A DNA stretch of 32,000 bases from positions 4,800,001 to 4,832,000 of the forward strand of contig CP104013.1 of assembly GCA_025839675.1 (NCBI GenBank), read 5' to 3'. The translations under genes and the position numbers were made by a program. Shown piece by piece: positions 1 to 25,241 of this stretch (position 1 is the first letter of the stretch; every line of letters begins with the position of its first letter). Below the pieces are notes generated by a model that was not told the origin of the DNA, ran no database searches, and worked only from the letters and a program-made list of their open reading frames with translations. The DNA comes from Candidatus Lokiarchaeum ossiferum (GTDB taxonomy: Archaea; Asgardarchaeota; Lokiarchaeia; Sigyniarchaeales; Promethearchaeaceae).

Positions 1-219
1 ATCGGCACTGATCACTTTGCGTTCATATAAAATTTCAACATGACCTGCATCAAAAGAAAATTTTATTGCTTTGTACATATCGTTTTGTTGATCGAGGGGA
101 GTTAATCGTAAGACGTCGACAAAATCTTGTTCTATGGCCTCATCTATCATGCGTTCTAAATACTGCGGAAGTGCATCGGGTTCGTTGAATAGACTGGGCA
201 TAGTGAAGTTTAACTCCAT
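1..219 (-). CDS. hypothetical protein, N-terminal fragment (gene continues past the window start)
   Basis: Absent from the ORF track because the window edge truncates it. My reverse-complement reading gives ATG at 217-219 and 73 open codons to position 1 (MELNFTMPSLFNEPDALPQYLERMIDEAIEQDFVDVLRLTPLDQQNDMYKAIKFSFDAGHVEILYERKVISAD...). AGGTGA Shine-Dalgarno-like motif at 228-233 (minus strand), 8 nt upstream. No family recognised. Confidence 0.4.
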   Translation of the reverse strand, partial: MELNFTMPSLFNEPDALPQYLERMIDEAIEQDFVDVLRLTPLDQQNDMYKAIKFSFDAGHVEILYERKVISAD

Positions 220-382
220 CAAATTTTTCACCTAAATTGCACGATTTATGGCAATTTTGTTTTATGATTGATTAAAAACTAATGTTCTAATTTAAATTCT
301 AGCATTTTGTTTTTATACGTGTCACGTCGAAATTTTTATATATATTAAAAGTAACATATATTGAGCACCTATTTAAAGCTAA

Positions 383-413
383 CCCACTTTCGACAAAAAA
401 AATTTGAGGTGGG
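383..413 (-). terminator. candidate terminator downstream of the GTPase pair (oligo-T tract within a short inverted repeat)
   Basis: On the minus strand, a T8 run (395-402) is flanked by the inverted repeat CCCAC (383-387) / GTGGG (409-413), about 45-75 nt after the stop at 457. Archaeal termination commonly uses oligo-T tracts. Confidence 0.3.
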
Positions 414-456: not shown

Positions 457-1215
457 TTAATCTTGCCAAATTCTTTCATTATCTTCAGGGTTCAACTCTT
501 CATCAAGATTTTCTTGAAAACCGATCTTTTCTTTGTCTTGCTTGGGAGAATTTTCGGGAATCTCTGCCAAACCATCATCTTCTAAGTTAACATCAATTTT
601 ATCATCGGGAAGTAATTTCATAGAGACTAATTCGGATCCATGTTGGACTCGGGACGATGTGACCGATATCTGTAATGAAGAAAGTACATAATTTAAGGTA
701 AATTGGAAGCCTTTGTAAAAATCGGGTAGGATTGAAGTACCAAAAACGCGAATTTTATCCTTACCAAATTTTTTCTCAATGGCTAAGCGAATTGTGCTTA
801 TTTTTTTTTCCCGCTTTTTATCAGAGGGAATTAAATCTATTTTGTGAAGCAGAACATACACGAACGGAATATCATAGCGAGATACGATGGTATTTAGCTG
901 TTCCACCAACTCAAGTATTTTACGTTTCGAATGTCGACAATCGAAAATAATAAGTAATTCATCCGTTGCCGGAAAAATATATTCATTTTCTCTCTTAAAC
1001 CATGTTTCTAATTCTTGGCCAGCAAGGTCAAAAACTCCAATTTGTAAATTTCTCCATTGAAAATTAGAAACATCAATTCCTCGGGTTGGTTCAATAGAAC
1101 TTCTCAATATGACTTCAGGTTCGACATATCCAAAAGTAGTTAGGACAATCGAGGATTTACCACTCGCGGGAGGACCGACGAAAATTACTTTTTTTTCAAT
1201 TTCCATTATGATCAA
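457..1215 (-). CDS. Rag/Gtr-like small GTPase (paralog A)
   Basis: P-loop GPPASGKSS, switch-I EPTRGIDV, G3 DLAGQE, G4 LLHKIDL (His in place of the usual Asn, as in Rag/Gtr HKxD), then FGTSILPD..YKGF (compare Rag TSIWDE..YKAW). The segment GQELETWF..YIF..ELLIIFD aligns by eye with RagA GQDTFMENYF..NIF..VLIYVFD. The ORF-track start is TTG at 1215; ATG at 1204-1206 (MEIEKKVIFVG) is the more likely start. Confidence 0.75.
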   Translation of the reverse strand: MIIMEIEKKVIFVGPPASGKSSIVLTTFGYVEPEVILRSSIEPTRGIDVSNFQWRNLQIGVFDLAGQELETWFKRENEYIFPATDELLIIFDCRHSKRKILELVEQLNTIVSRYDIPFVYVLLHKIDLIPSDKKREKKISTIRLAIEKKFGKDKIRVFGTSILPDFYKGFQFTLNYVLSSLQISVTSSRVQHGSELVSMKLLPDDKIDVNLEDDGLAEIPENSPKQDKEKIGFQENLDEELNPEDNERIWQD

Positions 1216-1245
1216 TTTTTTAAGGGATTAAAGGGTGCTTCTGGC

Positions 1246-2034
1246 TCAATCACGATCTCGTTCAATTTCCTGGATGGTTAAATCTTTTTTGACTGTTGCC
1301 ATTTCATTATATCCGTTTGGGTTGACCTTCGGGACTTCTGCTAAACTATCATCGTCTAAATTAACGCCAATAAATCCTGCTGTCCGTAAACTTTTTAGCA
1401 ATGCTTCGGAGACTGGAACTGCTCGGAGTTCTTTCATATTTCGGACAGATATTTCCAAGGCGGTAAGCATCCAATCCATTTGAAATTTGAATTTTCCAAA
1501 ATGATCTGGAAATAGTGAAGTAGCAAAAATTTTGATCCGATCCATTCCAAAGGTATCATCAATATTCTTTTTTAAAGTCGCAATATAAGTTTCCCGCTCG
1601 TTGATGGTTTTTGCTTTATCAATTTTATGTAAAATAAGGTAATAATAAGGGATTTTAAACTTTTTAACAATGGAGAGTAACACTTTTATTAACCCGACGA
1701 TTTTTTTCGGATTCATACCAAACTCAAAAACAATGAGAAGTTCATCAGTTCCTGGAAAAATGAAATCTTGTTCATTAGTAAGAAAGAAATTGAGTTCTTG
1801 GCCTGAGAGATCATGAACTCCAATATTGACATGCCCATAACGATAAACTGAGTTCTCCATTCCACGTGTGGGTTCTGCTGGTGATGCTAAAATCAAATCT
1901 GGTTCAACAGAACCAAAAATAGACAACAATATTGAAGTTTTCCCGCAGTTCGGGGGACCTAAAATAACGAGTTTTTTATCAGAATCCATATCAGAATTTT
2001 CCATATATACACTTATATCTGCAATTTTCACCAA
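1246..2034 (-). CDS. Rag/Gtr-like small GTPase (paralog B)
   Basis: GPPNCGKTS, EPTRGMEN, DLSGQE, ILHKIDK, FATSLFPDHFGKF. It aligns along its whole length with paralog A. The ORF-track start is TTG at 2034. ATG at 2002-2004 or 1987-1989 (MDSDKKLVILGPP, matching MEIEKKVIFVGPP of A) is more likely. It lies 39 nt upstream of paralog A on the same strand. Confidence 0.75.
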   Translation of the reverse strand: MVKIADISVYMENSDMDSDKKLVILGPPNCGKTSILLSIFGSVEPDLILASPAEPTRGMENSVYRYGHVNIGVHDLSGQELNFFLTNEQDFIFPGTDELLIVFEFGMNPKKIVGLIKVLLSIVKKFKIPYYYLILHKIDKAKTINERETYIATLKKNIDDTFGMDRIKIFATSLFPDHFGKFKFQMDWMLTALEISVRNMKELRAVPVSEALLKSLRTAGFIGVNLDDDSLAEVPKVNPNGYNEMATVKKDLTIQEIERDRD

Positions 2035-2998: not shown

Positions 2999-4063
2999 TT
3001 GAAGCAAATAAGAAGAAAAACTATCTTTAATTCGACTTTTGGAGTCGTTTTATCCATCTTAATTCTAAACATCTTTATTGGTTCCGTTTCGGGTTGGAAA
3101 AATGGATCCTTTGCGGATGATCCTGCAGTGTATAATTATGTCGATGATTATGGGACACATGATTGGATTGCTGATTACGCTTTGCAAAGTCTAATGGCGC
3201 TGAATGGTTCCCAATGGCAATGGTTGGAGGATCGTAAGGAAATTTACTATGTTGGGACGGAAGCTCCAGATAATTCTGGGATAAATATTGTCCTTGATGG
3301 ATCTACCATTGAAGGCTTTGGGGATACAACCTATCATCATGTGTATTTCTACGAAAATGGAACTGTGCTGGAAGACGATTCTGCAGTGCGAGCAAAATGG
3401 TGTGGTGATTGGGCAGATGTTTCATTTTCTGCAGGAGATTTTGATAAAGCCGCTTTCTATTTGGGTGCTATGACACATTATATTGCTGATCTTGGCATGT
3501 ATGCCCATGTTGCTGACAACTATGTTGCCCCATACAATATCTATTTTGATGAACATCATTCTACCATAGAAGGATATGTTAACACACGAACTAATGAATA
3601 TGATGATATGGTTGAGTTTTTTCACATTTCAAATATCAATGTAACCTCAATCACTCCTTATAATTCTGCAATTCAACTTGCTTGGCAAACCTACAAAGAC
3701 CCTTCTCCTTCTGAATCTATAACCCGAGATGCATTGTGGTTACATAATAATCATTTTACAGGCTGGGCATTGACCTATGATTCTCGAATGAGTGAAACGA
3801 ATGAAACCAAACTTCAATATTACGATCGCTTCGAAGAAAACTTGTGGAATGCAATTTCTAAATGTGCTTCTTCCATTTACAATGTATGTGGATCCGGTGA
3901 TACCGCTTCTACATCCACTACCGCCACCACGACGACTACAACTGAATCTGAACCAGATGTCATCGATCAGATTTTATCCATTTTTACAATAATTCCTTGG
4001 TGGACAATTTTGATTTTACTCGGGATCGTTGTTATTATCGTTGTTATTAAACGGAATAACTAA
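2999..4063 (+). CDS. secreted zinc-dependent phospholipase C / P1-nuclease-fold protein with Thr-rich linker and C-terminal TM anchor
   Basis: Signal peptide KQIRRK + hydrophobic core ...GSVSG, followed by Trp (WKNG), as in the mature W1 zinc ligand of PLC/P1 nuclease. Further motifs: GTHDWIA; YHHVYF; HYIADLGMYAH (H-x3-D-x5-H, the spacing of PLC HYLGDVNQPMH and P1 HFIGDMTQPLH); HSTIE (H-x3-E as in PLC). Linker TASTSTTATTTTTTESEP, then TM WWTILILLGIVVIIVVI-KRNN. There is no Met before the signal peptide, so the start must be TTG 2999 or GTG 2987. Confidence 0.65.
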   Translation: MKQIRRKTIFNSTFGVVLSILILNIFIGSVSGWKNGSFADDPAVYNYVDDYGTHDWIADYALQSLMALNGSQWQWLEDRKEIYYVGTEAPDNSGINIVLDGSTIEGFGDTTYHHVYFYENGTVLEDDSAVRAKWCGDWADVSFSAGDFDKAAFYLGAMTHYIADLGMYAHVADNYVAPYNIYFDEHHSTIEGYVNTRTNEYDDMVEFFHISNINVTSITPYNSAIQLAWQTYKDPSPSESITRDALWLHNNHFTGWALTYDSRMSETNETKLQYYDRFEENLWNAISKCASSIYNVCGSGDTASTSTTATTTTTTESEPDVIDQILSIFTIIPWWTILILLGIVVIIVVIKRNN

Positions 4064-7293: not shown

Positions 7294-7980
7294 TTAAGGA
7301 TTCAGAAATCTATCCAAATTTTTATTTCGAAACCGATTTTCAACGCCTCCTTTCATTCCAGGGAGTTGCATGCAGTTTTCAGGGATCATTTTCTTAAAAT
7401 ACTTTCGGTTTTCTCGTTCAGCGATAAATTGGGAAGCGTAAAATTCTTCGAAGAGGTCTGTATTATCAAAAGTAATATCATCAAAATAGGGTTGATCGGC
7501 ACGATTAACACTCAATTGTATGATTACAGTATCCAAAGTTTTTTTAAATATTGAAATTTGCCCCATTTCATCAATTGAAATTGTTTCTCTTTTCAAAGAG
7601 TTGTATAAACACACTATGAAATTTGGAAATCTATCATGAAAATATTGAAGAACGAAATCTTCTACAGCGTGGGAAATTGATATTTCACCCGCCAAAATTC
7701 CCTTCTTATTTAATTTTGTCCGCGTAAATTGTTTGCATCGTTCCGTTTCCTTGAATAATTCTTTGATCATTTTATCTACTTTACGTGCAAAGGGTGATCC
7801 AATATTTTGTAATACCGCTTCTGGAGTGGATTGAATTCTTTTGTGTATAATGGGAGAATAATTTGCATGACGTGGGATCAAATCTAAGATTTGAGCTTTT
7901 TCATATCCTTTTAATCCACATCGGCCATTAGATTCTACTTTTTTCTTTGGATACAAAGTTGGAACCCATTTTTCTAACAT
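7294..7980 (-). CDS. DUF4130 / TIGR03915-like 'probable DNA metabolism protein' (partner of the radical SAM protein)
   Basis: KQFTRTKLNKKGILAGEISISHAVEDFVLQYFHDRFPNF and the C-terminal EEFYASQFIAERENRKYFKKMIPENCMQLPG resemble family motifs recalled from memory (GFlRF..g.l.A.i.P.h.v....hF..Rfp ; Yf..i.I..R.N.....mP.ryW..LpE). The start overlaps the upstream radical SAM stop (ATGTTAG, 7974-7980). Confidence 0.6.
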   Translation of the reverse strand: MLEKWVPTLYPKKKVESNGRCGLKGYEKAQILDLIPRHANYSPIIHKRIQSTPEAVLQNIGSPFARKVDKMIKELFKETERCKQFTRTKLNKKGILAGEISISHAVEDFVLQYFHDRFPNFIVCLYNSLKRETISIDEMGQISIFKKTLDTVIIQLSVNRADQPYFDDITFDNTDLFEEFYASQFIAERENRKYFKKMIPENCMQLPGMKGGVENRFRNKNLDRFLNP

Positions 7981-9332
7981 ATCATCTTCAATCCTTTATC
8001 TATAAAACGATCCAATTTGTTTTGGCGATATCCATTAATTGTTAAGAATGGATCTGCTCTTTTTAAAACAACGCCCATGGAATGCAGTTGCTCTCGGGAT
8101 TTGATAGGGATTTTATGTCGTCTTAATTGCATGATTCGATTTGCTGATTTAATACCAATACCTGGAACCCGCAATAAATCTGCTTTTGAAGCTGTATTCG
8201 GGTCAATAAAACCCTTTTCTCCAAAATATTGATCCGCAAGAAACATCTTAGGATCTCCTTTTGGTAAATTATTTTCATTTGTTAAAATTGCTTTAATTTC
8301 CGGTAATTTGATATGGTAGAGTCGTAATAACCAATCTGTCTGGTACAAACGGTGTTCTCGCTCTAAAGGTGCTGCTTGTTGCTTTTCTAAGGGTGTTCCT
8401 TCTATGGGGGCAAATGCTGAGAAATATCCTCTCCGAAGATCAATTTCCTTATATTCCCAATCTAATCGTCTGAGAATATCATAGTCATTTTCCGATCCGG
8501 CCCCTAACACCATTTGGGTAGTCTGTCCGGAGTTCATGATTGGGGCGCCATCCCATCGAATTTTTTTATATCCAGTCGAACGTCGTTCAATTCCATGTTC
8601 ATCAATCCATCCATCTTCCAATGGATTTTGGGACTTTTTCGTTAAGGATATTGTTTTTTGGGGGAAATCATCAGCAAGATGATCTTGAATTTCCTTTTGA
8701 GCTTCTTGATTATGGCGAATTCGAATGGATTTAAGCCATTTTTGGCGGGAAAGAATGTCTGTATTGTAATTTTTTTGTTCGGCAATCTCAAGAAGATGTT
8801 GTTTGGTAGGAGCTTCCACATTCACCGAGATACGATCGGATAATTTGACTGCTTCCTTTAGTAGATATTGACTGGTTCCAGGAAGACATTTAAAGTGAAC
8901 ATATCCTTGAAACTTGTATTTAAACCGTAATAATTCTACTGTTTTAAGCATATCCTTGGTGGTTTCATCTGCATCTCCACAAATTCCAGATGACATAAAT
9001 AATCCTTCCAATACATTCATAGAATAAAGTTTCATAAAAGTTCGAGCATATTCCTCTGGTGTAAAGGACATTCTTTGCTTACAGACATTGTTAAAACAGT
9101 ATTTGCAATTATAAATACATTTATTTGTAAATAACACTTTGAAAAGGGACACACATCGCCCATCAGGAGTGTAGGAATGACATACACCCGATGCTATGGT
9201 AGATCCGATCCAATCATTCCCTTTTCCAAATAAATTTGGAGCTACTTCGGATCGACTGCTTGATGTACTCGCACAAATGTCATATTTTCCATTTTCCCCC
9301 AAAACTCGAATTTTTTCTAAGGTCGAAGGCAT
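7974..9332 (-). CDS. radical SAM protein with C-terminal helix-hairpin-helix (TIGR03916-like putative DNA modification/repair radical SAM protein)
   Basis: CxxxCxxC cluster motif CIYNCKYC near the N-terminus. C-terminal HhH LLRVPGIGIKSANRIMQLR. It has a 7-nt overlap with the DUF4130 gene, the partner this family is typically found beside. Confidence 0.75.
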   Translation of the reverse strand: MPSTLEKIRVLGENGKYDICASTSSSRSEVAPNLFGKGNDWIGSTIASGVCHSYTPDGRCVSLFKVLFTNKCIYNCKYCFNNVCKQRMSFTPEEYARTFMKLYSMNVLEGLFMSSGICGDADETTKDMLKTVELLRFKYKFQGYVHFKCLPGTSQYLLKEAVKLSDRISVNVEAPTKQHLLEIAEQKNYNTDILSRQKWLKSIRIRHNQEAQKEIQDHLADDFPQKTISLTKKSQNPLEDGWIDEHGIERRSTGYKKIRWDGAPIMNSGQTTQMVLGAGSENDYDILRRLDWEYKEIDLRRGYFSAFAPIEGTPLEKQQAAPLEREHRLYQTDWLLRLYHIKLPEIKAILTNENNLPKGDPKMFLADQYFGEKGFIDPNTASKADLLRVPGIGIKSANRIMQLRRHKIPIKSREQLHSMGVVLKRADPFLTINGYRQNKLDRFIDKGLKMIC

Positions 9333-10871: not shown

Positions 10872-13800
10872 TTATTGTTTGGCTTTACGTCGTTTTTTGA
10901 TGATAAGGAACTCGGGTATTACTAATGTCATACCAATTGGGATCCAGAAAAGACCCACATCTTCATACCAGTGAGAAATAGTTTCTCCAAATTCTGATGC
11001 AAAACTTTTCAAAGGAATTGTGTCAGTCGCCGAAACAATATGGATATTATTCTCAAATAAGTATGTCACATCGAATTCCCCTCCATCTGAGGTGAATTGT
11101 CCGAGCATTGGTCTACTTATCCGACTTGATCCAACATAATGCCATTTTAGTTTTGAAGTTGCACCGTCAATGATGTTTAAGTAGTTATAATTTGTATAAA
11201 CTAAATCATTTGTTCCATCATCATCCATATCCTTAACTATCATGTAGGAATTAACCGCACTCACCATGAGTGGAGCATTGAATCGCCAGACTTCCGTACC
11301 GACATTGTTGTAGGCAACAACACCTTCTCTTTCGAGATTGAGGATTAATTCATCATAGCCATTACTTTGATAGATATCTCCTGCCATGAAACTCCGAAGT
11401 GATGTATCTGCAGCATAAGTGACTGATACTGTATTATGTGATATGATATCAAACATGGTAATAGTCCGATCATAACGATAGGCAATACTTGAATAGGAAG
11501 AAGAAGTGTAATGGAAATTTCCTACGACCATATCCCAAATATTGTTTCCCGTGTTGTGGGTCCAAATATGAGATCCATCTCCGCCTTCAACAAAATATAT
11601 ATCATCATTGTCTCCACCGAAAGCAACATCGAGAGTAGTTAAATCATTGAAGTAACCTACTACAATTTTGTTATTATTGTCATAGATTGTATCCTCACTT
11701 TTATACAATGAATTTCCATCATTGTCATACCATTCAAGATAAGATTCTGTTCCACTACTCTTTTCAAATAGAATAACACATTCATCACCAGGATTTTCAG
11801 AATCTGTATTAAATTCTCCAAAGTAATAATCAGCAATATCATAACCCGTTGGAGCAGAAATAGTGGCGATTGTTTTACCCGAATCTCCATCTAAATATAA
11901 TAGTTCAAATTCTCCATCGGTTTTATTCTCAAAACTAACCGCAAAATCCAAATTTCCATCTTGATTTAAATCGGCAAATTTAACATTACGGATTGTTTTC
12001 TTATATTGAACGCTTATTATTACAGAAGGTTCACTTGTCCATAAATTCAAGTTCATTCCGTCGTTTATTACCAAAATTTCATCAATTCCAGGGGTGGAAG
12101 GGTCAATATCTTCGATATAATATTGGTCAATTTTATCCCCATTGGTCTCGAAATCAAGGTATAGTTGATGAGGATCAAATCCAGCAGGAGCATGTTTGGA
12201 ATATCTATCAGTAGAATCATACACATTGATATATTCAAGATCGTTCCAAGATGCGATTAAATCAAAAGGACCATTACGCTTAAGGGATACTACGGCTCTA
12301 TTTAGTGAGTTTGTTTTGTTAAACCACATAGCCATTCCACTCTTTCCATCAACAGCAACAGTATATCCATCATCTCCAACAACTATTACATCAAATAAAC
12401 CATTTCCTCCAAATTTTCCAATCGTTATATCTTTGATTGTAAATGTTGGGGAATAATTCCATTGAGTTGCTCCACCTTCTAAATCCTCCAAGAATATTCC
12501 ATTGGATTCTGTCTGGGCCAAGACTTCTAATCCTCCATCTCCATCAAAATCTTCAAGATATATTTTTGGACCGATTTTTCCGAAGTAGGTCGAGTTATGC
12601 AAATAATAACTATTATTTACATCGATGACATGAATCGCATCTCCACCAACAATCAGTTCCTCGAATCCATCTTCATTCAAGTCAATAGGGATCATTTCAT
12701 ACCTTCGTCCGCTATTAGAATTCATAACTCCTTCAGAAGTTTCAAAAATTAATGATCCATCAGTGATATTTATGACTGACACTCTTCCATATTGTTCTGA
12801 AATTGCCAATGATGAAACATTTGCATTGTTATAATATCCTGTTTGCATTGAATAGATGCTATATGTACAAACATCTTGTAGATCATCAATTTCTGTGCCA
12901 TTATAGTCCAAAATTTGAATATCGTTTTCATATGCCAATAAGAATTCCATATATCCATCATTATTAATGTCAGCAATATGCCATACTGGAGTGTAATGAG
13001 TAGATGGTTTGGTCCAAATAACTGATCCATTTAAAGCACTAACCACTACAATTTCATCACTTTCATGATGTTTGAAACAAATTTCCAAATATCCATCAGA
13101 ATTTAAGTCAACCACGTCCATGGTCAATGTGTGAGTTCCTGATCCAAAAGAATCTGCCCACAATAGACTTCCATCTTTCTTTAATACGGTCACTTGCTTT
13201 CCTTGCGTAGAAATTGTAATTATTTCATCATTACCATCACCATCCACATCAACACTTTTCATCAAGTCAGAATCGGGAACGTAGTTGATGTCATAATACC
13301 AAGCGCGTTCTGAATTATATAATTCCACTGGGCCTTCTGAAGGATCCCGAAATTCGTAGAAAAATACATTTCCGCGTTTAGTTGCGACGGCAATTTCCTC
13401 AAATCCATTACTTTTTGTATCATACACTGTTAAACCTGTGAAATCATTCTCATACTTCGGTGAAAGCCAAGTTTCTTCATAGGTCATGAAATCCGTTCCA
13501 TCAGTAGAAGATTTCATTTCATAAACTCCAACTTGATCTTCCCAACCCGCGATAACTTCACGACGACCATCAGAATCAGTATCACCAACATCTAGATCCA
13601 ATACTCTTAGTAGTTGATTAGCGGTCCAATCTGATTGTGGATTAATTCCATAACTTTGAACTCCTGCCCAATCAAATTGATCTCCGATCCATGACCAATC
13701 AAAGACATCTACTGTCCAAACGAGCGTATACATAAAACCTTCTCCATCCATTCCTACTATTGTTGGTGAAAATACTCTTGGATTAAAATAGCTCCAAGAT

Positions 13801-16800
13801 GTATAGCCATACTCTGGATATTCCGTTCTAACTAAATCCGGTGGTATGGTGTTTAATGTGTGTTCTCGTCCCCAAGTCATTCCTAGATCAGAACTCGCAA
13901 TAATTCCTATTCGATCCTCATAGGGGACCCCAACATTTTCATAAACTACAATAAGAGACTCATCATCTGATTTTAAAGTATCAATTTCTGGAAAAACTTC
14001 ATCTGTGTATGAATCAGTTATTTGTCTTGCAATTGAATCAGAAAAACCTGATGAATCCCATTGAAGTAAATAAATATCATGATCTGGTTTTCCATTTTTA
14101 GCTGTAAGGGCTGAGAAAACAGTTGCATAGCTTCCATCCGATAATGTTGTTGTTGAAGTTGATTGAATGTCAAAATCAGCATATCCATCAAAAAATAATA
14201 TTCCACTACCTGCATAAGATAAAGTTGATGAAATATCCATTGAGAATGCACCAATCCAGCTTCCCGATCCTAAATAATCATAATCGGCTCTAAATGTAAT
14301 TCCAATATAATCAGAATCCATTTGAAATAAGCTTGGATAATGGAGTAAATCATTTGTGTTCAACGCACCTATTCCTACTGGTGTGTTCCATAGACCCGTT
14401 CCAGTATTCAATTCTGATGCCCAGAATTGTGTATCTCCAATGTTAGTTACGATTTTCCAAACAGCAAAAATTCGACCTGTTGTTGTACATGTAATCGTTG
14501 GTTCGCATTCATATATGAAAGATGCATAGGATGAATCTGGCATCACTTGTTTTGGAACTTCCCATTCTTCAGTACCCTTATTATAACGTTTCCACCAAAG
14601 GTCTGACTTGTTGTTATAAATTTGTAGAATGAAATTACTATACGGTCCACTTTCACAGTTCACCGCATCGCTTCGATATTCATTTTTAAGCCACAAATAC
14701 TCGGTTGTGCTGGGTGCGTAAGTTTCATCCAATTCGATGACTGGGTAATTGGGGGAACTAGTTACATATTCGATTTTTTGATATTCAGAATCTGTTGAAG
14801 GAATATGTTCCCAAATATCAAAACCTTGACTATGACCTATGATTATTTCTTGAGACCAATCATAATCCTGATCATCTAGTTTGATAATTGTAATTGGATT
14901 CCAGTAAACAACTTCACGGGGTGCATTCCAAACCTCATAGAATGTACCACCTTGGCATTCATAAATATTTACAAAACCGTTTTTTCGAATAGCACGTGTA
15001 TCATTGATACCACCTAATATAAGTTCCTTGTATCCATCTTGATCAGTATCTCCCGATGCGAGTGTGTCAATCCAAAAATATTTAAAATTGCTGTCTGCAA
15101 TTGGATTACCAACTAAATCATATCTACCTTCCAAGCTCTTGCTTGTAACAAAGTATTCTTGATCCTCAATCCCTTCATAATTATTTTCGGGGACATTATA
15201 AACAAATAAATAGGGTCCTGCAGCCAATATCAATTCTCTTTGGCCATTATAATCAAGATCATCACCATTAATTAATGCGGTGATCTCAGTTACTTGATCC
15301 CAACCTGATTGGCCAACAAATTCTGAGTCCCAGAGATCAATTGAGTAAATAAATTGCATCTCATCTCCTCCAGTTAATCCCCTATCTTCAAATACATAGG
15401 CTTTTAGATTTGCTGTCACTATCATTTCTTTTAATCCATCCTGATCTAAATCAACATCAGCTAGAAGATTTGTCGCATGATCCCAAATCGTTCGAGTAAA
15501 TTCACCAGATATTCCTTCCAAATCTTGATATAAATAGGGACTTTCTGTTGTACTTTCTTCATGGGTCAAATCAAAAGTTTTATACATCCGTTTATAATTA
15601 TTTTCCACTAAGTTTTCAAATAGATAGACATTGTTATCATAATCACCAACAATTATTTCTCCTTTTCCATCTCCATCAGTATCTGCAGATGTAATTGATA
15701 ACGTCCAATCTTTGAGATCCTCTTCAGTACTCCATGATTCAAGAACATGGTAACCAAAATTCATGAAGTTTGTATCTCCACTATCAAGGAGACTGAATTC
15801 CGTTCTGATAACTTCTGGATAGGATGCTACTATATAACTGTCGATTGCATCATATACTGGTTCTGCCCAGTGTGTGGTATGCGTTTCATTATTATATGTA
15901 ACCATTAAAAACTCTGGATCATCATAATCGTATAAATTTGAATAGATATCATATGTTGAACCCGTACCTACTGGAATAATTCTTGTATCTGTCATTCCCA
16001 AAAATTTTAAATTCGTTTCAGGGCGAGTATTTGAAAATATTCGTTTATCTTGTCTCCAAATAGGCTTGTCCTTAGTTCCGTGATTCAAGAATGCTGTGGA
16101 TCCATTTTTATTGGCGTAACTTAAAATTAAGTCCAAATCGTCATCTTTATCTAAATCGAAAAGTTCTGGTTGGCCCCATGCATTGGATTTTAATTCACTG
16201 TTCACATCTGCAAAGTAATCATGAATAAGGGTGAAATTCATAGTTTCCGTTTCAACCCAAAGATTTTTTGCCAAATATAAACGACCATTGGTGAAAATTA
16301 AATCTTGATCTCCATCTCCGTCGATATCATCAAAGACCATTTTTGGAGTGGTTTTTGACATTCCAACTAGTGCAGTGATTTCTCCAGTTAAATCATAATA
16401 ATTGATATTCCTTCTTAGCGAAAATGGATCACTGAAACCTCCTCGAAACCAGAAATTCAATTCTGCGTTATATGTATCTACATCGTTACCATAAGGTTCG
16501 ATATCTGGGCTGTATGATGCTACGGCGAGAAATGGTAGTGGACTCCCTGTGGCTGGAATTAAGGGGACTTCTACAGATACGAAAGGTTTATCTTTTATTG
16601 CTAAGTAGTTATTGATATCATTAAGATAGGCTTGAACTGTTGAATCTGGCAAGTTCGGAAAAGCTTCATAGGCAAATATTTCTGATTGCTGGGTTCCTAC
16701 GAAGTAATTTGGTGCATCAAAATATGGATTAATATTTCCAAAAGTCCATGAGTTATAGTCTCCCGAAAGTGGTGGCAAAGGCATTGGAACATAATTGGTT

Positions 16801-18761
16801 GGATTGGGACCTTTTAGAAATCGCCATCCTGGAATACTCGCAACGGATTCAATGTGTTGCAAATCCCAAATTCCTGTTCCCGCTGCATAAAATTCGTCAT
16901 CGCCAGAATCCCATACTAATTCATAGATATCTTCTGCACTATTCCACTGAATCCCTAGATATTTACCAGTCACTGTTCCAACAACAATCTTATTGGCTTC
17001 TTCTTCTCCATCCATATAAGCTTGTCCGTCTAATCGTAGTGGGCCAATGGTAAGGGATAATCCATCTGTTAAAAGGTTGTACACTTGCATCAATTCTAAA
17101 GAATTGATGTCATAGTTAGCATCGTTAAATACTGATAATTTTGCATACCTGAACCAATCCCATTTTCTCTCAATGAGTGCGTCATCTACATCAATTCGCA
17201 GTTTGTTTCCCGAAATTGTGAAATGATCTGAGAAAATTTGATCGAAATCTACCCCATCTTGAGAAATTGAGAAATTAAAATCTGAATAAATTGAAGTTGT
17301 TAGACTGGTTGAAAATGTGATTTCAACATCATAAGCATCACTTGCACTTCCAGATCCTTCTTCATCTAATCCAAAATCGACCACTGCAGATGCATTAGTC
17401 ACCCCTGGAATTGAAGCATCAAAAGTTGAATAATTCCCATCGGGCGCCATTGACATTCCGGTATTGTAAGGATAGCAATCAGCATCTGGTTCAAAATGAT
17501 CTGTTACCCAGACATAGTCTATTGGTTCAGGTGCATCGAAGTAAGGTGAGATTGGATTGCTATAAGTGACATTATTTGCCGAGATAACTCTGTCAACATA
17601 ATGATCTAATCCCCAATAGCCAAAAGTTTCCCAATCCTCGTAAGCTCGAACTATTTTTTTATAATCAAAGGTTTTGGTAATTTCATTCCAATCTAATGAG
17701 AACACCCCTTGTCCTTGAGCGATCAAAGCTAATTCTTCTCCCTCACTTCCATCAAGTTCTCCAATATCCATTGATAGAATCGGGGTCCAAGTATAATTTT
17801 CACTCGTCCAAATTAATTCATACGCGTTATCTTGAATTAAGGGGAAATAATCACCATTGATTTCCATACTAATTCCATCATTTTCAAAAATAAACACAGT
17901 TCCTTCGCGAGTTCCAACAACAATTTCAGGAAGTCCATTATGATTAGTATCTCCCGATTCAAGAGAATAGATTTTTTCTCCATCCACATCATCATGATAA
18001 ACTTGACGGTAGGTTATCCAATGTTCTTCGTTGAATGGATAACCAGAATGTTCATCGTATTCATAAAGGTATAATCCATCCCAAGATCCAACAATAATAT
18101 CCGGTCGATAGTCTCGATCGGCATCTTCAATTTTCACATCAAACACTCGAAACATGGAAGGTGATGTCCATACCAATTCAAACATATTTTCAGTATTAGT
18201 GAATGGATCATAGATATGGCGTTGTTCAAAAACATACACATGCCCATCAGAACTTCCTGCAACGATTTCTAAGAAATCATTCAAATCAGTATCTCCAAAT
18301 GCAATTGCCATTACATCACTTTGAATAATTCCATCACCACATACCCAAACCTTGTCAAAATCCCCTGTTTCAGTATTTAAACGATACAAATGTACTTCAT
18401 TATCATACAAATATCCTCCAGCCATAGCTAAATATCCTGTATCTTCATGATAAGATACTGCATGAATGGCTGCTTGTGACTTCCAAGGTTGGTATATTTC
18501 AGTGTAATCATTATCCCGATCCCCAAGAACAACTCCAATATCTTGATCTGAAGGAAATTTAACCATTTCTTCTTCCAACAGATTAGTTACAGCGGGTTGA
18601 ATGTCCATAGGGAGTTCATCTAAAATGTTTTCACCTACATCTTGAGTAATTTGTTTCAATTCTTCTTTTTGATTATAATTGGGCAATAACGATACTACGT
18701 TCATCATTACTAAGCTAAGTACGATTAAACCTGCAATTTTTGTTTTAATTAAGTTTTTCAT
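10872..18761 (-). CDS. giant (2629 aa) surface protein: FG-GAP/VCBS (integrin-alpha-like) and PQQ-like beta-propeller repeats with discoidin-like and BNR-like inserts; signal peptide and C-terminal TM anchor
   Basis: Signal peptide MKNLIKTKIAGLIVLSLVMMNVVSLL. At least 15 Ca2+-loop + strand repeats of FG-GAP type (GDTDLNDFLEIVAGSSDGHVYVFE, GDTNHNGLPEIVVGTREGTVFIFEN, DDIDGDGDQDLIFTN, ADTDGDGKGEIIVGDYDNNVYLFEN, GDTDSDGRREVIAGWEDQVGVYE, VDVDGDGNDEIITIS, IDLNEDGFEELIVGG, EDFDGDGGLEVLAQ, KDMDDDGTNDLVYTN...). The C-terminal third has 'DGs..W' PQQ-like turns. Many N-x-S/T sequons. C-terminus LFWIPIGMTLVIPEFLII-KKRRKAKQ. Confidence 0.8.
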   Translation of the reverse strand: MKNLIKTKIAGLIVLSLVMMNVVSLLPNYNQKEELKQITQDVGENILDELPMDIQPAVTNLLEEEMVKFPSDQDIGVVLGDRDNDYTEIYQPWKSQAAIHAVSYHEDTGYLAMAGGYLYDNEVHLYRLNTETGDFDKVWVCGDGIIQSDVMAIAFGDTDLNDFLEIVAGSSDGHVYVFEQRHIYDPFTNTENMFELVWTSPSMFRVFDVKIEDADRDYRPDIIVGSWDGLYLYEYDEHSGYPFNEEHWITYRQVYHDDVDGEKIYSLESGDTNHNGLPEIVVGTREGTVFIFENDGISMEINGDYFPLIQDNAYELIWTSENYTWTPILSMDIGELDGSEGEELALIAQGQGVFSLDWNEITKTFDYKKIVRAYEDWETFGYWGLDHYVDRVISANNVTYSNPISPYFDAPEPIDYVWVTDHFEPDADCYPYNTGMSMAPDGNYSTFDASIPGVTNASAVVDFGLDEEGSGSASDAYDVEITFSTSLTTSIYSDFNFSISQDGVDFDQIFSDHFTISGNKLRIDVDDALIERKWDWFRYAKLSVFNDANYDINSLELMQVYNLLTDGLSLTIGPLRLDGQAYMDGEEEANKIVVGTVTGKYLGIQWNSAEDIYELVWDSGDDEFYAAGTGIWDLQHIESVASIPGWRFLKGPNPTNYVPMPLPPLSGDYNSWTFGNINPYFDAPNYFVGTQQSEIFAYEAFPNLPDSTVQAYLNDINNYLAIKDKPFVSVEVPLIPATGSPLPFLAVASYSPDIEPYGNDVDTYNAELNFWFRGGFSDPFSLRRNINYYDLTGEITALVGMSKTTPKMVFDDIDGDGDQDLIFTNGRLYLAKNLWVETETMNFTLIHDYFADVNSELKSNAWGQPELFDLDKDDDLDLILSYANKNGSTAFLNHGTKDKPIWRQDKRIFSNTRPETNLKFLGMTDTRIIPVGTGSTYDIYSNLYDYDDPEFLMVTYNNETHTTHWAEPVYDAIDSYIVASYPEVIRTEFSLLDSGDTNFMNFGYHVLESWSTEEDLKDWTLSITSADTDGDGKGEIIVGDYDNNVYLFENLVENNYKRMYKTFDLTHEESTTESPYLYQDLEGISGEFTRTIWDHATNLLADVDLDQDGLKEMIVTANLKAYVFEDRGLTGGDEMQFIYSIDLWDSEFVGQSGWDQVTEITALINGDDLDYNGQRELILAAGPYLFVYNVPENNYEGIEDQEYFVTSKSLEGRYDLVGNPIADSNFKYFWIDTLASGDTDQDGYKELILGGINDTRAIRKNGFVNIYECQGGTFYEVWNAPREVVYWNPITIIKLDDQDYDWSQEIIIGHSQGFDIWEHIPSTDSEYQKIEYVTSSPNYPVIELDETYAPSTTEYLWLKNEYRSDAVNCESGPYSNFILQIYNNKSDLWWKRYNKGTEEWEVPKQVMPDSSYASFIYECEPTITCTTTGRIFAVWKIVTNIGDTQFWASELNTGTGLWNTPVGIGALNTNDLLHYPSLFQMDSDYIGITFRADYDYLGSGSWIGAFSMDISSTLSYAGSGILFFDGYADFDIQSTSTTTLSDGSYATVFSALTAKNGKPDHDIYLLQWDSSGFSDSIARQITDSYTDEVFPEIDTLKSDDESLIVVYENVGVPYEDRIGIIASSDLGMTWGREHTLNTIPPDLVRTEYPEYGYTSWSYFNPRVFSPTIVGMDGEGFMYTLVWTVDVFDWSWIGDQFDWAGVQSYGINPQSDWTANQLLRVLDLDVGDTDSDGRREVIAGWEDQVGVYEMKSSTDGTDFMTYEETWLSPKYENDFTGLTVYDTKSNGFEEIAVATKRGNVFFYEFRDPSEGPVELYNSERAWYYDINYVPDSDLMKSVDVDGDGNDEIITISTQGKQVTVLKKDGSLLWADSFGSGTHTLTMDVVDLNSDGYLEICFKHHESDEIVVVSALNGSVIWTKPSTHYTPVWHIADINNDGYMEFLLAYENDIQILDYNGTEIDDLQDVCTYSIYSMQTGYYNNANVSSLAISEQYGRVSVINITDGSLIFETSEGVMNSNSGRRYEMIPIDLNEDGFEELIVGGDAIHVIDVNNSYYLHNSTYFGKIGPKIYLEDFDGDGGLEVLAQTESNGIFLEDLEGGATQWNYSPTFTIKDITIGKFGGNGLFDVIVVGDDGYTVAVDGKSGMAMWFNKTNSLNRAVVSLKRNGPFDLIASWNDLEYINVYDSTDRYSKHAPAGFDPHQLYLDFETNGDKIDQYYIEDIDPSTPGIDEILVINDGMNLNLWTSEPSVIISVQYKKTIRNVKFADLNQDGNLDFAVSFENKTDGEFELLYLDGDSGKTIATISAPTGYDIADYYFGEFNTDSENPGDECVILFEKSSGTESYLEWYDNDGNSLYKSEDTIYDNNNKIVVGYFNDLTTLDVAFGGDNDDIYFVEGGDGSHIWTHNTGNNIWDMVVGNFHYTSSSYSSIAYRYDRTITMFDIISHNTVSVTYAADTSLRSFMAGDIYQSNGYDELILNLEREGVVAYNNVGTEVWRFNAPLMVSAVNSYMIVKDMDDDGTNDLVYTNYNYLNIIDGATSKLKWHYVGSSRISRPMLGQFTSDGGEFDVTYLFENNIHIVSATDTIPLKSFASEFGETISHWYEDVGLFWIPIGMTLVIPEFLIIKKRRKAKQ

Positions 18762-18764: not shown

Positions 18765-21700
18765 TTATGCCCCTCCTTTTTTCTTTTTCAAAATTATTAA
18801 AATCGTGGTTCCTATTAATAGAACTGAACCACCTCCAATACCGCCCCAAAAGAGTGCAGGGTTAATTTGGGTGATCACCTCAAAATAGACAACCACTTTA
18901 TGAACTGTGCCGTTGAGATCCCGGCCATAGACTTCCATTGTGTAATTTCCGGGTTCCCAAGTAATCGTGTCATTAAACCATTGTTGTTTATCCGCTTCAT
19001 AGGTCATCGAGACATTATCACTCCATCCCGTGCCATTATCAAAGCGATACCATACATCACTAAAGGATGTAAAATTAACCACTCTGACTTGAGTTTTTAA
19101 ATAAACTGTAGACTGGTTTTTAGGTAGTAACACTTTCATGCTTCCAGAACCTAGCGCAATACTTAGCATGTTATTAAATTCTTCTTTTGAGGTCCATACT
19201 AAAGGATCAGTACCAACAGCCATTTCAGTTCCATCGGAAAATCCATCTCCATCTGTATCTGATTTAGTAGGATCTGTTCCGTAGAGATAGTATTCATCTC
19301 CATCTAAGAGTCCATCAAAATCTGAATCGGGATTTTCAATACCTCCTCCATAAATTGCTTGAGTCCCAATTTTGAATTCTAATCCATCTGCTAATCCATC
19401 AAAATCTGTATCAAATTCGTATCCATCAATAATTCCATCGTTATCAGAATCATCATCCATTGGATCCGTGCCATAATAATGCACCTCTGCTCCATCAGGT
19501 AATAAATCGCCATCCGAATCTGGGTTTAATGGATCGGTGTTATATGTGGTAATTGTTACCGAAGCCACGAATGGAATCGGGACTTGGGATGCTGAAGCAG
19601 GCAATATAATTGTGAGTAATTCTTCATTATCATATAACCCATCTCCATCCGTATCATTATAGATGGCTGAAGTATTATATTTGAAAATTTCATCATAATC
19701 TGATAAAGTATCATTATCGGTATCTATCACTTGTGGATTAGTGTTGTATACAATAACTTCTAAGTAATCATTTACTCCATCCCCATCTGTATCATTCAAA
19801 ACAGCACTTGTATTGTATTGAAATACGAGCGTTGCTGAAATGAAGGGGTAAAGTATATCAGTTTGATTCTTTAATTGCACTTCTAAACCGTCTTCAAGTC
19901 CATCTCCATCTGTATCATTACTTAATGGATTCAATGGGATTGGATCGGTCCAAGGAATTTGTCCAGAACCTAAATAAAGTTCAAGACCGTCTCTTAATCC
20001 ATCCATATCGGTATCCGATCGGGTGGCATTTGTTCCATATACCATGACTTCATCATAATCGCTCATTGGCCAAGTCATTTTTCCTTCGGCATTTGGTTCA
20101 ACAATAGAATCTCCATCGGTATCCCAATTGAGTGGATCGGTGTCATAGAACAAAATTTCTTCACCATCGGAAAGTCCTTCGCCATCAGAATCATAATCAA
20201 ACGGATCCGTTCCATAGACAAATATTTCTTGATAGTCCGTGAGTCCATCATTATCGGAATCCTCATCCATTGGGTCGCTACCATATTTTAAGACTTCATC
20301 TCCATCAACAATGTTGTCTCCATCACTGTCATCGGTCAAAGGATTACTGTGCCAAAAGTAAACTTCTTCTCCGTCTGTCAGACCATCAAAATCCGTATCA
20401 ATCAAGTTTGGATTAGTGAAGAAAATATAAAATTCATCACCATCAGGGATCATATCAAAATCACTATCCGCGGTTCGAGGATCTGTCCCAAGCAAAATTT
20501 CTTGCATATCAAATAGTCCATCATCATCGGTATCAGGATCGTTGGCATTTGTGTGGTTGCTATATGGATTGAGTACTCCTTCAATTCCATCAATTAATCC
20601 ATCATCATCACTATCCCCATCTGTAGGATCGGTTCCATAGGCTAATTCAAATCCATCTCCGTTTAACCATTGACCTGGCAGTGGCGTATGATCGCTGTTA
20701 CCCGTATCACCATCCGTATCAGGATTCACCGGATTTGTAAAAACATGCTTGAGTTCAGGTTCTCCCTCATCATCATAAACAATTAGATCAAAACCCGCAA
20801 CTTCAGCTCCATCATTGCAGTCGAAGAGATAATAATTATTCAATTGCTTGTCGACCATTCCATTGTATAATTGATAATTGGAATCATCATCAGTATCCGC
20901 ATCTAGAGGATGTGTGTATCCATAAAAGAATATGAGTGGATCTCCTGCAACTGCAGTATCGGTCTCATTATAGAGTGAGTCCAAACCATAATATGCTCCC
21001 ATTGGGCCTTCATCTCCATCCATTAAACCATCCCCGTCCGTATCGGGGTTAAGTGGATCCGTGTGGTCATTGTAGGTTTCTCCTCCGATATTGATTTCAG
21101 TTACTGTGGTGGTAACATTATCAATATCCCATTTAGTGTAAATTTCATAAGCATCTGTCAATCCATCTCCATCTGTATCTTGAGAGAAAGGATCTGTGTT
21201 GTAAACTTTTAGTTCTTCATAATCAGTGACATCGTCCCAATCGGTATCTGGTTGAAGAGGGTTTGTTCCTTCATCCCATTCTTCCCCATCAGTTAATCCA
21301 TCATTGTCTGTGTCTGGATCTGTGGCATCAGTTCCCATGGTTTTGACTTCAAGTTTATCTCCGGCTCCGTCTCCATCTGTATCTGGATTATTTGGATCTA
21401 ATCCGGGGATCGTAGCTTCATACTCGTCTCCAAGCCCATCACCATCTGAATCGAAACCTATACCGGCATCTTCGTAATCGGTGTCACCCTTATTTGGGGA
21501 TAAATCCCATGGACCGCCAGGTTCCCATGTCCAAGTTTTAGTTGTTGAAGCAAATAAAAACCGTAGCTTAATTTTAAGCGTTAGTATTAACCTAAGAGTT
21601 ATCTTCATAGGAGCACTTGATGACAGATCTTGGAAGAATGTGAGAATTATTTCTAGTGACCCATCAATCACGATTTCGACGATCAAAAGATTAATGCCAA

Positions 21701-24700
21701 TATGAATCGCCACTCCCAAAGTAATGACAATCGTCAATGTCGATACTTCGGGAGATGTTGCACTGGCAGCTTTCTTGCAAATATCTATTTCGACCCCTAA
21801 ATATATGGAAATCGTTATCGAATCTAATCCCAGAAATTCGGCTACTGCATTAATTGCTCCTCCACCCATACCACCTGTGAAGAATTCTAAAAGGGTCATG
21901 GTTTTAGAAAGTTGGATTTTTATATTAAATCCCCATTCAATAATATTAAAGAAGTCTTCCCATTCAAAAATACCTCCTTTGAAAGTAAAGAGACTCATCT
22001 TGAAATGAGCACTGCCGGAAAATGATAATTCTAATCCCAAAGCGCCTAATAAATACTGCATAAAAGAGTTTTTAGATGAATCCATACCATCTACTCCCAG
22101 TTCTGCTACAAAAACGGGACTTATTTCAAAACATGCAAAAATAGTTTTGAAGAAATCACCTACGGAGTTCAATGAAAAAGTACTTCTTCCATCAAAGATC
22201 AAACTTTTAATAAAATCTAAAAGGGGTGTGGGATCGATATTAAAGTTGGCTGTAATTCCTAAATCTATTTTTAGATCGAAAAGCGACCATTCTCCCAATC
22301 CAATTGGGATTTTTCCATGGTAACCAATTATTTCTTGTCCTCCTCCAAAGATTCCCAAAATGGCTGTTTCCAGTTCATCTATCATAGGATTGAGTAAACC
22401 TGTTAACCAATCCATCACTTTTCCAATTATCCAATCTAATCCATTCGTAAATAATCCTTTAAGATCCATGGCAATTTTTAAGAACTGGTTTAACATTTCA
22501 CTATACTGAGTTGGTATTAATCCTGAAACAATAGACATTATTTCATTAATGATTTGCGTTGCACTGGGTAGATCTTTTGGTTCTAAGCCAAACATCTCGG
22601 GGAAAAAGGATTTTAAGAGGTTCAAAAATGCATCTATAGGGACTCCATCAAAATAAGGGTGAATTGTAATAATCGACCCTACCGAAGTCCATAATGCTTG
22701 GAGTATACCTTTGAAAGACTTACCTTTCACCGAAGAAACGAGATTTAGAATTCCACTGGCAATTTCTCCAAAAGTGTTAATTGTTGAATTGAATGTTTCT
22801 GTTCTTTTTGCTTGAGGGGTAAATCCCGTTATCACACCTTTCAATAATTTAGGAATCGCTTGATACAAATTGGTCCCAACATCTTTCAGAGCATTTTTCA
22901 TTAATTGTTTAAGAGACCCTGAATCGGTAATATAGGCAATCATACCTAAAATAGGTCGAACGGTTTCGTTCACAATTTTTTTTATGGTTGTTAAATCCGT
23001 GCTACCCATCCCTACTTCATCCAAAATGTCAAATGCAATCTCAAATAAGTCGGGTAATTGATTAACATCAAATCCATCATTGTAAATTCCGGTAATAATT
23101 GTCATAACATCTGCTATTATATTCCGAAGATTCGATGAAACTGAAGAAGCTAAACCTTCTTCTAATTTTGCTATGATTTCTGCTTTGAAATTTGCAACAC
23201 TGGTCATTCCTCCTTCCTTGTAGTTTTTCACAATATTCATGACTTTTCGGGCTAGTTCTTCAGCATCTCCAACGATACTTGAATCCCCCACGAATTCTTG
23301 TAAAACTACTTTAACCAACTCAATTACTGATTCGGCATTGAAGTTGTCCACCAAATCGATTACTTTGAACGATAATTTCATCATGGATGTTATTTTGTCC
23401 ATTCCGGCTTGCATATCGGTGCTAACTGTTCCAGCCAATAATTGGAGTAAAGGTCCACCTATGTTTTCTAATAATTCTTCAATATCAAAATTCACAAGAA
23501 AGGAAACGAGACTTTTTACCACTGATTTTACTTTTGGCAACATATCGGAGACTTCAGAAGGTGTCCATCCTAGTACGCCTGCAATAGTTTTGTTTAACAG
23601 TGCATCTAAGACGTTTTCCATAAAGAAACTAACCATTACATCAAAAACATTTTTCCCTTCATTGACCACTTCATCAATAGAATTCCACAAATCTTCTCCA
23701 AAATCTAAAATACTAAATATTGTATCCACAATTCCGCTAGATTCTTCTGGTAGTAGATCTGCCATGAGGGTCTGAATTAATTCCATAACAATTTCCATGA
23801 TATCGGAGGTATCCCCACGTAAGTTGAATAATGCCTTCACAAAGATATTCAAGTAATCTTTCATGCTTTCAATAAAAGGAAATTCATTCGAAATAGCATC
23901 GATAACTATTTTTAGTGCACTTTCAGCGCTGGGATCTTTTGCCAATCCAATTAATTGAGTTATTTGTCCAAAAGATGATTGGATTGTTTCCATGATGTTC
24001 GAAGGGATAGATAGGGATGTATCACCTGTTGATTCCATAATGGTTAAGAGCACATCAACAATTTCTCCAATAGGTCCACTTAATCCTGAAAAGAGTGGAA
24101 GTTCTCCTAAATCAAAATCATCTTCTGCGGCAGCTTCCGGTGCGGATAGTTTGATTATTGGACTGAATCCTTCATCTAGTTCTTCTTCCGGAATTTCGGT
24201 AAGCTCTCCTTCTTCATCTTTATAATATGCGGTAGGTTCTAATTCAGCTTCATGACGATCCCACATGGCATTTTTCCGTTCTTCGGCTGCTTCGGGATCA
24301 ATTTGTCCAACAGGTGTTTGAGGTTCGGTTGAAACTTGGAAGAGTGCATTGAAATTATCTGCGTAAATTTGCCCACTCATTTGTTTTAAGTCCTCAGCGG
24401 CTTTAAGATAGTTTTCATCTTCAGCGGATTTCTTTTCAGCAAGTTCTGCAACACTCCAGATATCGAACATAGTTAGTAAAATGGCATCGGTTTGTTCCGC
24501 TTCGCTGTGATGGATATAATTCGCATCGGAAGGAATAAATTTGTCAAAAGTTAGAGTGTTTCCCATTCCCATAATATGTTGGGTGTTTGGTTGAGCTAAA
24601 AGAAGTTTAGTAAAGGTGCGCCACGAAAGTGAGTACTCTTCAAAATTAACACCATACAAGTTTGAATCCAAAGCATAGATGGCCAGCCATGGAGCATCAT

Positions 24701-25032: not shown

Positions 25033-25241
25033 GTTTTCTTCGATATTGCCCCAATATTAGAATAATTCCAAAAAAAGGGATTGATTTCATTGTATTTTTT
25101 CCAAATTTACATCTGAAAATCTAGAAAAATTACCAAAAAAACCATTTCTAATTATTGAAGGGACTTAGATTATTACTACATGGAATAACAACTATTTTCA
25201 GTAATTAAGATTTAACCAATAATAAATATTTGGTGTGCTTT

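Follow-up and report, generated by a model that had tools for sequence, protein, structure and literature searches.

Rag-family GTPases are numerous in Asgard archaea and occur there in many architectures (Liu et al., bioRxiv 10.1101/2020.10.19.343400; PMC12290439). In the Lokiarchaeon MK-D1, 74 small GTPases of which were modeled by Tran et al. in 2024, Rag-like proteins make up the second-largest small-GTPase class and are often annotated as Arf; fusions of a GTPase to a roadblock or a longin domain were described, and one Rag-like operon pair was predicted to heterodimerize through its roadblock domains like Gtr1-Gtr2 (PMC10933270). Asgard proteins formerly named 'Arf-like' were placed near Rag by Zhu et al. 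(PMC11914678), and a homotetrameric Lokiarchaeal RagA-like GTPase has been crystallized (PDB 8yl2, recovered here as a Foldseek match). The subject of this analysis is a tandem pair of Rag-like small GTPase genes on the reverse strand (-) of a 32,000-nucleotide stretch of the Candidatus Lokiarchaeum ossiferum genome (contig CP104013.1, positions 4,800,001 to 4,832,000), which as a whole is referred to as the window. The two genes, G1 (upstream) and G2 (downstream), probably encode co-transcribed and lineage-specifically duplicated switches of a small Lokiarchaeum-clade subfamily within the Asgard Rag-like expansion.

G1 was located at 1246-2004 (-) (252 aa from the ATG at 2004, with an open reading frame (ORF) that reaches the TTG at 2034) and G2 at 457-1206 (-) (249 aa from the ATG at 1206). 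When counted from the first in-frame TTG, the ORFs extend over 1246-2034 (-) and 457-1215 (-) and encode 262 and 252 aa; the RefSeq model of G2 also begins at TTG 1215 and gives 252 aa. Translation probably begins at ATG 2004 in G1, as in the RefSeq model, and at ATG 1206 in G2, as in its orthologues, which leaves a spacer of 39 nt (1207-1245 (-)) that does not contain an oligo-T tract. A preliminary description of this locus had listed two adjacent same-strand paralogs of 252 and 262 aa, 39 nt apart, which agrees with the ORFs and with an identity of 41% between the two proteins over 237 aa (E 4e-65, the alignment extending into the tails). G1 corresponds to WP_371803403.1 in RefSeq and NEF87_004115 in GenBank (annotated 'GTPase domain-containing protein') and G2 to WP_371803402.1 and NEF87_004114 (annotated 'ADP-ribosylation factor-like protein'). 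L. ossiferum database proteins match both at 99-100% identity.

Class assignment and family range

The best Pfam family for both proteins was Gtr1_RagA (59.1 bits and E 5.5e-16 for G2, 33.6 bits and E 3.5e-8 for G1). Arf scored 23 and 18 bits lower (35.8 bits for G2, where it was second with an E of 7.3e-9, above cutoff, and 15.5 bits for G1), a Roc match remained under its cutoff (21.9 vs 27), and no COR domain was found in the same scan, so that the LRR-Roc-COR arrangement of the ROCO proteins is not present. A hidden Markov model (HMM) of the family G domain assigned 56 bits to Gtr1, 42 to RagA, 30 to RagC and 27 to Gtr2, followed by RhoA (26) and Arf1 (20), and gave at most 10.5 bits to Rab, Ran, Ras, Sar, Arl8 and MglA. 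Of the 13 reference GTPases compared by BLASTP, those at the top for both G1 and G2 were, in order, Gtr1 > RagA > RagC; identity to the eukaryotic Rag/Gtr proteins is 23-29%, and to any Rag at most 33%. The G domains of the AlphaFold2 (AF2) models were confident (the predicted local distance difference test score, pLDDT, was mostly 63-91 for G1, dropping to 46 in a single block at the switch-I loop), and when these models were compared to the PDB by using Foldseek, RagA/Gtr1 chains were the top 9 matches for G2 (E 6e-12 to 2e-10) and Gtr1/RagA chains the top 11 for G1 (E 6e-12 to 3e-8 for both proteins together). A phmmer search of the PDB found G2 closest to Gtr1, RagA and RagD and G1 closest to RagC/D. 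An A/C orthology on this pattern (G2 with RagA, G1 with RagC) was dropped, as it was not reproduced by BLASTP, Foldseek or the tree; both copies are closest to RagA/Gtr1 by Foldseek and BLASTP, rather than one being A-like and the other C-like.

Motifs were compared in an alignment of 81 sequences (G1 and G2, 66 Asgard relatives, four eukaryotic Rags and nine other references). The G domain of G1 (aa 10-183, window 1456-1977 (-)) carries the P-loop GPPNCGKT, switch-I EPTRG, G3 DLSGQE, G4 HKID and G5 TSL, and that of G2 (aa 5-180, 667-1194 (-)) carries GPPASGKS, EPTRG, DLAGQE, HKID and TSI. All five nucleotide-binding motifs are complete in both proteins, including the P-loop Lys and Ser/Thr, the switch-I Thr and the G3 Gln. 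The early claim that both have HKID at G4, unlike NKxD, held in the alignment: HKxD was present in G1, G2, all four eukaryotic Rags and 63/66 Asgard relatives, and NKxD in 9/9 non-Rag references. A Rag-like G5 region, TS(I/L)xPD, was likewise confirmed in both proteins, G5 reading TS(I/L) in the four eukaryotic Rags as well, and G3 can be summarized as DL(A/S)GQE. The distance from switch I to G3 is T-x18-D in both, as had been noted (T41-D60 in G2, T46-D65 in G1), but the exact RagA register that was read by eye is off by one residue because RagA has T-x19-D. Given the complete RagA/Gtr1-type motif set (GPPxxGK(S/T), switch-I Thr, DxxGQ, HKID, TS(I/L)), the most likely role of each G domain would be that of a guanine-nucleotide-dependent switch.

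The P-loop GPPxxGK(S/T) has prolines where Ras has A11 and G12 (aa 16-23 of G1, window 1936-1959 (-); aa 11-18 of G2, 1153-1176 (-)). This GPP form was present in 43/66 of the Asgard Rag-like relatives and was not seen in eukaryotic Rags.

A neighbor-joining (NJ) tree, as opposed to a maximum-likelihood tree, was calculated from 180 columns with 200 bootstraps. The Asgard sequences in it were chosen for their similarity to the query; the four Rag references were verified as full-length matches to PDB chains, and the nine non-Rag references were unverified. The Asgard relatives and the eukaryotic Rags were separated from Ras, Rab5, Rab7, RhoA, Ran, Arf1, Arl8B, Sar1A and MglA with 98% bootstrap support, which is the phylogenetic check that the preliminary description had proposed for its Rag/Gtr resemblance and which groups both proteins with the Rag-like sequences, away from Arf, Rab and MglA. 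Together, Pfam, phmmer, BLASTP, HMM, Foldseek, the motifs and the tree bear out that resemblance, and these sequence and model comparisons support an assignment of G1 and G2 as Rag/Gtr-like rather than Arf/Rab/Ras/MglA-like. They are new members of an already known Asgard Rag-like class, from which they are distinguished only by the lack of a folded partner domain, conserved tail motifs and a local tandem duplication.

To determine the extent of the family, 1.84 billion cluster representatives were searched exhaustively with a profile, which recovered 680 relatives at E<=1e-3 and eight at E<=1e-30. All named family members were from L. ossiferum or from metagenome-assembled genomes labeled 'Promethearchaeota archaeon'. 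The next-best relatives were multidomain Asgard proteins of 290-510 aa, eukaryotic Rags were absent from the top 150, and Gtr1_RagA was the top Pfam family in all sampled nearest relatives. A metagenome scan using the family alignment yielded only distant Rag-like genes (27-38% identical).

Other genomes share the tandem arrangement, a point left open at the outset, and it was found in five lineages: the window, the loci L001/L002 (a close relative, 85-90% identical to the window pair), L003 (63%) and L007 (59%, the second gene being cut by the contig end), and, as inferred from the origin of proteins P0009 and P0003 on one 2,337-bp contig, a fifth. In three further lineages (L004/L005, L006 and L023/L024) a lone G1-type gene was present in the same genomic setting. 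The L003 orthologues are 63% identical to the window protein for G1 and 39% for G2; by such divergence G2 evolves faster than G1.

Eukaryotic RagA/Gtr1 and RagC/Gtr2 were monophyletic with 99.5% NJ bootstrap support, to the exclusion of G1, G2 and all 66 Asgard relatives. The G1 group, which includes the single-copy genes, was monophyletic as well (100%). On these sequence relationships the G1/G2 duplication is a shallow event in one Lokiarchaeial clade, and it is unrelated to the RagA/RagC split since the eukaryotic A- and C-type Rags share a branch of their own. The short family is placed within the Asgard clade rather than at its base, with deep nodes unsupported, and its nearest sister proteins (P0016, P0050 and P0062) are also short.

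C-terminal tails and the origin of the pair

Approximately 67 residues follow the G domain in each protein (aa 186-252 of G1, window 1249-1449 (-); aa 184-249 of G2, 460-657 (-)). The Gtr1_RagA match covers only model positions 1 to 162/163 of 232, compared to an end at 211-220 in longer Asgard relatives, and no Pfam family matches the tails at E<=1. In the AF2 models the tails have a pLDDT <50 and just two short helices each. An hhalign comparison of the tail profile with Asgard and eukaryotic C-terminal roadblock domain (CRD) profiles found no similarity (P 0.55-0.84), nor did the full set of CRDs and ~115-aa C-terminal domains from relatives (P 0.16-0.84), although this test has little power because even the positive control, in which Asgard and eukaryotic CRDs were compared, gave a P of just 0.058. 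The lack of a roadblock domain, which had been proposed from the length of the tails, is thus supported by both sequence and predicted structure, and with it the Rag-type dimer interface is absent.

Much of the tails had also been described as acidic, low-complexity sequence. The first part is correct mainly for G2, in which 19 D+E are set against 7 K+R (12 vs 10 in G1) and which lies clearly on the disordered side in a charge-hydropathy analysis. The second part needs qualifying, as the tails are more than filler and are conserved like the G domain: orthologue identity for tail and G domain was 0.66 vs 0.66 in the G1 group and 0.60 vs 0.68 in the G2 group. Conserved in the G1 tail are KELxAVPVSExLLKSLRTxGF, VNL(E/D)D(D/E)xLAEVP and GYNEM, and in the G2 tail (I/V)DVNLEDDxLAEIP, GFQEN and PEDNERIWQD, the last of which forms a conserved C-terminus in G2 orthologues. 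Islands common to both consist of a short helix (SExLLKSLR in G1), (I/V)xVNL(E/D)D(D/E)xLAE(V/I)P and G(Y/F)(N/Q)E. Because of this G-domain-like conservation and the shared short motifs, the tails probably bind a partner and fold on binding.

The pair is therefore pictured as follows. Each G domain would report its nucleotide state, while the tail would dock the protein on a separately encoded partner and fold upon it. G1 is the slow-evolving copy, of the type present in every lineage; G2 is the duplicate that evolves faster and whose acidic tail ends in WQD, and it is probably sub- or neo-functionalized within the same pathway.

Several observations weigh against this explanation. G1 and G2 were recovered as one clade in only 56% of bootstraps and the G2 group was not monophyletic. 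The tree is an NJ tree on 180 columns with four eukaryotic Rags, nine unverified references and query-biased Asgard sampling. In the charge-hydropathy analysis the G1 tail came out borderline, on the 'folded' side, and the AF2 models were built on shallow alignments of 13-14 sequences, which makes a low pLDDT in the tails weak evidence of disorder.

The relatives P0006, P0018, P0020, P0021 and P0027 (~270-350 aa), which form the nearest larger Asgard Rag-like group, carry a ~115-aa C-terminal domain (e.g., RLEKLGMIEF) that by eye is winged helix-like and not roadblock, and to which no Pfam family was matched.

An origin by domain loss, in which the subfamily descended from a GTPase-roadblock or GTPase-winged-helix ancestor and the tail is a remnant, is possible but somewhat doubtful; it bears on origin alone and can stand beside the lineage-specific switch explanation. 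Nearly all of the next-closest relatives, at 290-510 aa, have C- or N-terminal extra domains, and the nested position of the short family in the NJ tree also fits a loss. Against it stand the hhalign comparisons of the tail with CRDs and the ~115-aa domains, weak as their control was, the unsupported deep nodes and the three nearest sisters that are short too.

The second alternative is a convergent heterodimer, in which G1 and G2 are obligate partners through their G domains or tail motifs and form a RagA-RagC-like two-GTPase switch of independent origin. The genes are only 39 nt apart with no terminator-like tract between them, both copies are kept with intact G motifs in at least five lineages, the motif VNL(E/D)DDxLAE(I/V)P is common to both tails, and the homotetramer named in the title of PDB 8yl2 demonstrates that oligomerization occurs in the Rag-like class. 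Three related lineages, however, carry only a G1-type gene, from which it follows that G1 can function without G2, and G2 changes at a much higher rate than G1, in which the pair differs from obligate partners that co-evolve tightly. Binding of G1 to G2 was rated unlikely because three lineages manage on G1 alone.

A more elaborate arrangement, a 'split Rag' in which the tail motifs dock G1 and G2 in trans on a separate roadblock/longin dimer or on each other, was considered improbable. If true, it would be a two-GTPase-on-platform assembly, the functional equal of Rag-Ragulator without a fused roadblock domain, and Rag logic could then be built from separate parts in an Asgard archaeon.

The preliminary description had gone further and proposed that the co-expressed paralogs may represent a prokaryotic forerunner of the heterodimeric Rag module, dimerizing through the G domains or a separately encoded partner. 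That the pair is such a precursor, or the surviving relative of a precursor, of the RagA/B-RagC/D module from before the gain of the roadblock domain has to be regarded as very improbable. It would account for Rag-like G domains in two paralogues that are apparently expressed together, and the phmmer best matches (Gtr1/RagA for G2, RagC/D for G1) appear to favor it, but that split vanishes in BLASTP and Foldseek, where both are nearest to Gtr1/RagA. The monophyly of the eukaryotic A- and C-type Rags leaves all Asgard sequences outside, and the family occurs only within a shallow Lokiarchaeum clade, three of whose lineages have one copy. Moreover, Asgard Rag-like GTPases that bear a roadblock domain are known, an operon pair among them (PMC10933270), and in relatives of 290-450 aa the Gtr1_RagA match reaches the CRD part of the model; the roadblock-bearing proteins are better candidates for the ancestral state.

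Least probable of all is that G2 is an Arf-like GTPase, as its RefSeq name has it and as its second-ranked Pfam match and the structural nearness of the Rag-like class to Arf (Tran et al., PMC10933270) could suggest, since G4 is HKID rather than NKxD, G5 is TSI rather than (T/C)xA, only 4-9 residues precede strand 1 (which begins at residue 5 in G2 and 10 in G1) with neither an N-terminal amphipathic helix nor Gly2, the tree parts G1 and G2 from Arf1/Arl8/Sar1 at 98%, and formerly 'Arf-like' Asgard proteins were themselves moved near Rag (Zhu et al., PMC11914678). With Gtr1_RagA ahead of Arf by 23 bits and with the Arf N-terminal helix and NKxD both absent, the label 'ADP-ribosylation factor-like protein' appears to be a mis-assignment.

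Transcription signals and neighboring genes

A T8 tract (395-402 (-)) lies 55 nt past the G2 stop within a short inverted repeat (CCCAC at 409-413, GTGGG at 383-387) and is a candidate archaeal terminator of the G1-G2 transcript; its region is partly conserved in L001. It is followed by a TATA-box-like TTTAAATA at 370-377 (-), upstream of ORF X, which is the same in the window, L001 and L005 and has variants in L006 and L003. The window contains the first 73 codons of ORF X (1-219 (-)), preceded by a Shine-Dalgarno (SD)-like GGTGA at 228-232. With no oligo-T in the spacer, and with the T8 tract, TTTAAATA and GGTGA all between G2 and X, G1-G2 is probably bicistronic and ORF X a separate transcription unit. 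A scan for sigma-70 promoters and terminators returned background counts, its model not being applicable to archaea.

In full, ORF X encodes 157-170 aa, among which six Cys and a His are conserved (LCIF, MLCDGP, CPLTQ, CC, C(P/A)); with an identity of 67-92% between lineages it surpasses the GTPases in conservation. Full-length copies were located in L001 (10988-11491), L003 (9907-10380), L005 (8979-9482), L006 (1575-2075), L008 (1290-1802) and L023 (5955-6458). No Pfam or PDB relative of X was found, profile search included, a word-index protein search using the 73-aa fragment gave no match, and a genome scan with X returned one locus. X may bind metal, as a member of a family that is limited to the narrow clade of the GTPases. 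It adjoins the GTPase gene(s) in 6/7 of the loci in which it was seen and is downstream of them wherever the downstream region is readable; in L008 it stands without a GTPase beside a phospholipase-C-like gene, and the adjacency may for that reason be plain synteny.

The truncated ORF at 1-219 had been suggested as a possible roadblock or longin gene. It proved to be this conserved Cys-rich protein, in which no such signature is detectable, and X was rejected as the missing roadblock/longin partner given its lack of Pfam/PDB similarity, its own promoter- and SD-like signals and its GTPase-free occurrence in L008. No roadblock/longin gene was found in the 32-kb window and no roadblock neighbor in any related locus that was read.

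In four more distant lineages (L003 6934-7890, L004 6956-7873, L006 3-494 and L007 303-1250, all (-)), a divergently oriented gene for a leucine-rich repeat (LRR) protein of 305-318 aa lies ~110-130 nt upstream of the G1-type gene; neither the L. ossiferum nor the L001 locus has it. This pairing of separate LRR and small GTPase genes is a loose reminder of ROCO proteins.

Also adjoining the locus, in relatives that include L008, is a gene for a 354-aa protein (window 2999-4063 (+)) with a signal/anchor-like N-terminus, a Thr-rich linker, a C-terminal transmembrane segment and a weak match to zinc-dependent phospholipase C (E 5e-5, below cutoff). Elsewhere in the window, a 2629-aa ORF (10872-18761 (-)) contains FG-GAP repeats and beta-propellers, with BBS2/BBS7 propeller matches below threshold, and stands back-to-back with a 2078-aa ORF (18765-25001 (-)) that has 10 bacterial TSP3 repeats; both are probably large surface or adhesion proteins. 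Two further features are not connected to the GTPases: a gene pair of DUF4130 and radical-SAM/helix-hairpin-helix type with a 7-nt overlap (7294-9332 (-)), and an Eco57I/MmeI-type DNA methylase of 789 aa (25230-27599 (+)).

Comparison with known GTPase systems

The value of these results is modest. A database label is corrected, in that G2 is Rag-like and not Arf-like, and a roadblock-less Asgard Rag-like subfamily is defined whose conserved tail offers a partner bait in the culturable L. ossiferum. A tempting but wrong story, that of the tandem pair as a relic of the RagA/RagC origin, is removed. Should the tail recruit roadblock/longin proteins in trans, the pair would become a tractable system for pre-eukaryotic GTPase-platform wiring.

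Eukaryotic Rag/Gtr proteins (RagA/B and RagC/D; Gtr1 and Gtr2) resemble G1 and G2 in HKxD, TS(I/L) and DxxGQ, in lacking a lipidation motif and in having two paralogues expressed together, if the G1-G2 transcript is read correctly. They differ in a C-terminal roadblock domain of ~120-160 aa, through which they form obligate heterodimers of an A/B-type and a C/D-type protein; both copies here are RagA-like products of an independent duplication. The P-loop is GPPxxGK in G1 and G2 but GxSGSGK or GxRRxGK in eukaryotic Rags, and no counterpart of the TORC1, Ragulator/EGO and GATOR context of the latter is apparent at this locus.

The Asgard Rag-like GTPases share with the pair the NJ clade, the GPP P-loop, HKID, TSI and the host phylum. 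Their described architectures have the G domain fused to roadblock and/or longin, whereas G1 and G2 have only a conserved 67-aa unstructured tail. The solved representative, 8yl2 ('LokiRagO'), is a 342-aa homotetramer that is ~20% identical to G1 and G2; a literature search on 'LokiRag' and 8yl2 found no paper, and the relative P0155, checked as the possible solved protein, was not the same.

With Arf/Arl/Sar and Asgard ArfR the pair has in common a secondary Pfam match, the RefSeq name of G2 and the small-GTPase fold. The Arf family is set apart by a WDxGGQ G3 (HDLSGQ and FDLAGQ in G1 and G2), NKxD in place of HKID, and an amphipathic helix, often with Gly2, where G1 and G2 have no such helix. 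MglA differs in a G3 that lacks Asp (TxxGQ, against DxxGQ here) and in NKxD, is the most distant reference in the tree, and is not matched by an adjacent roadblock gene at this locus; even so, MglA-MglB, a prokaryotic small GTPase with a separately encoded roadblock GTPase-activating protein, is a conceivable model for how a roadblock-less Rag-like protein could operate.

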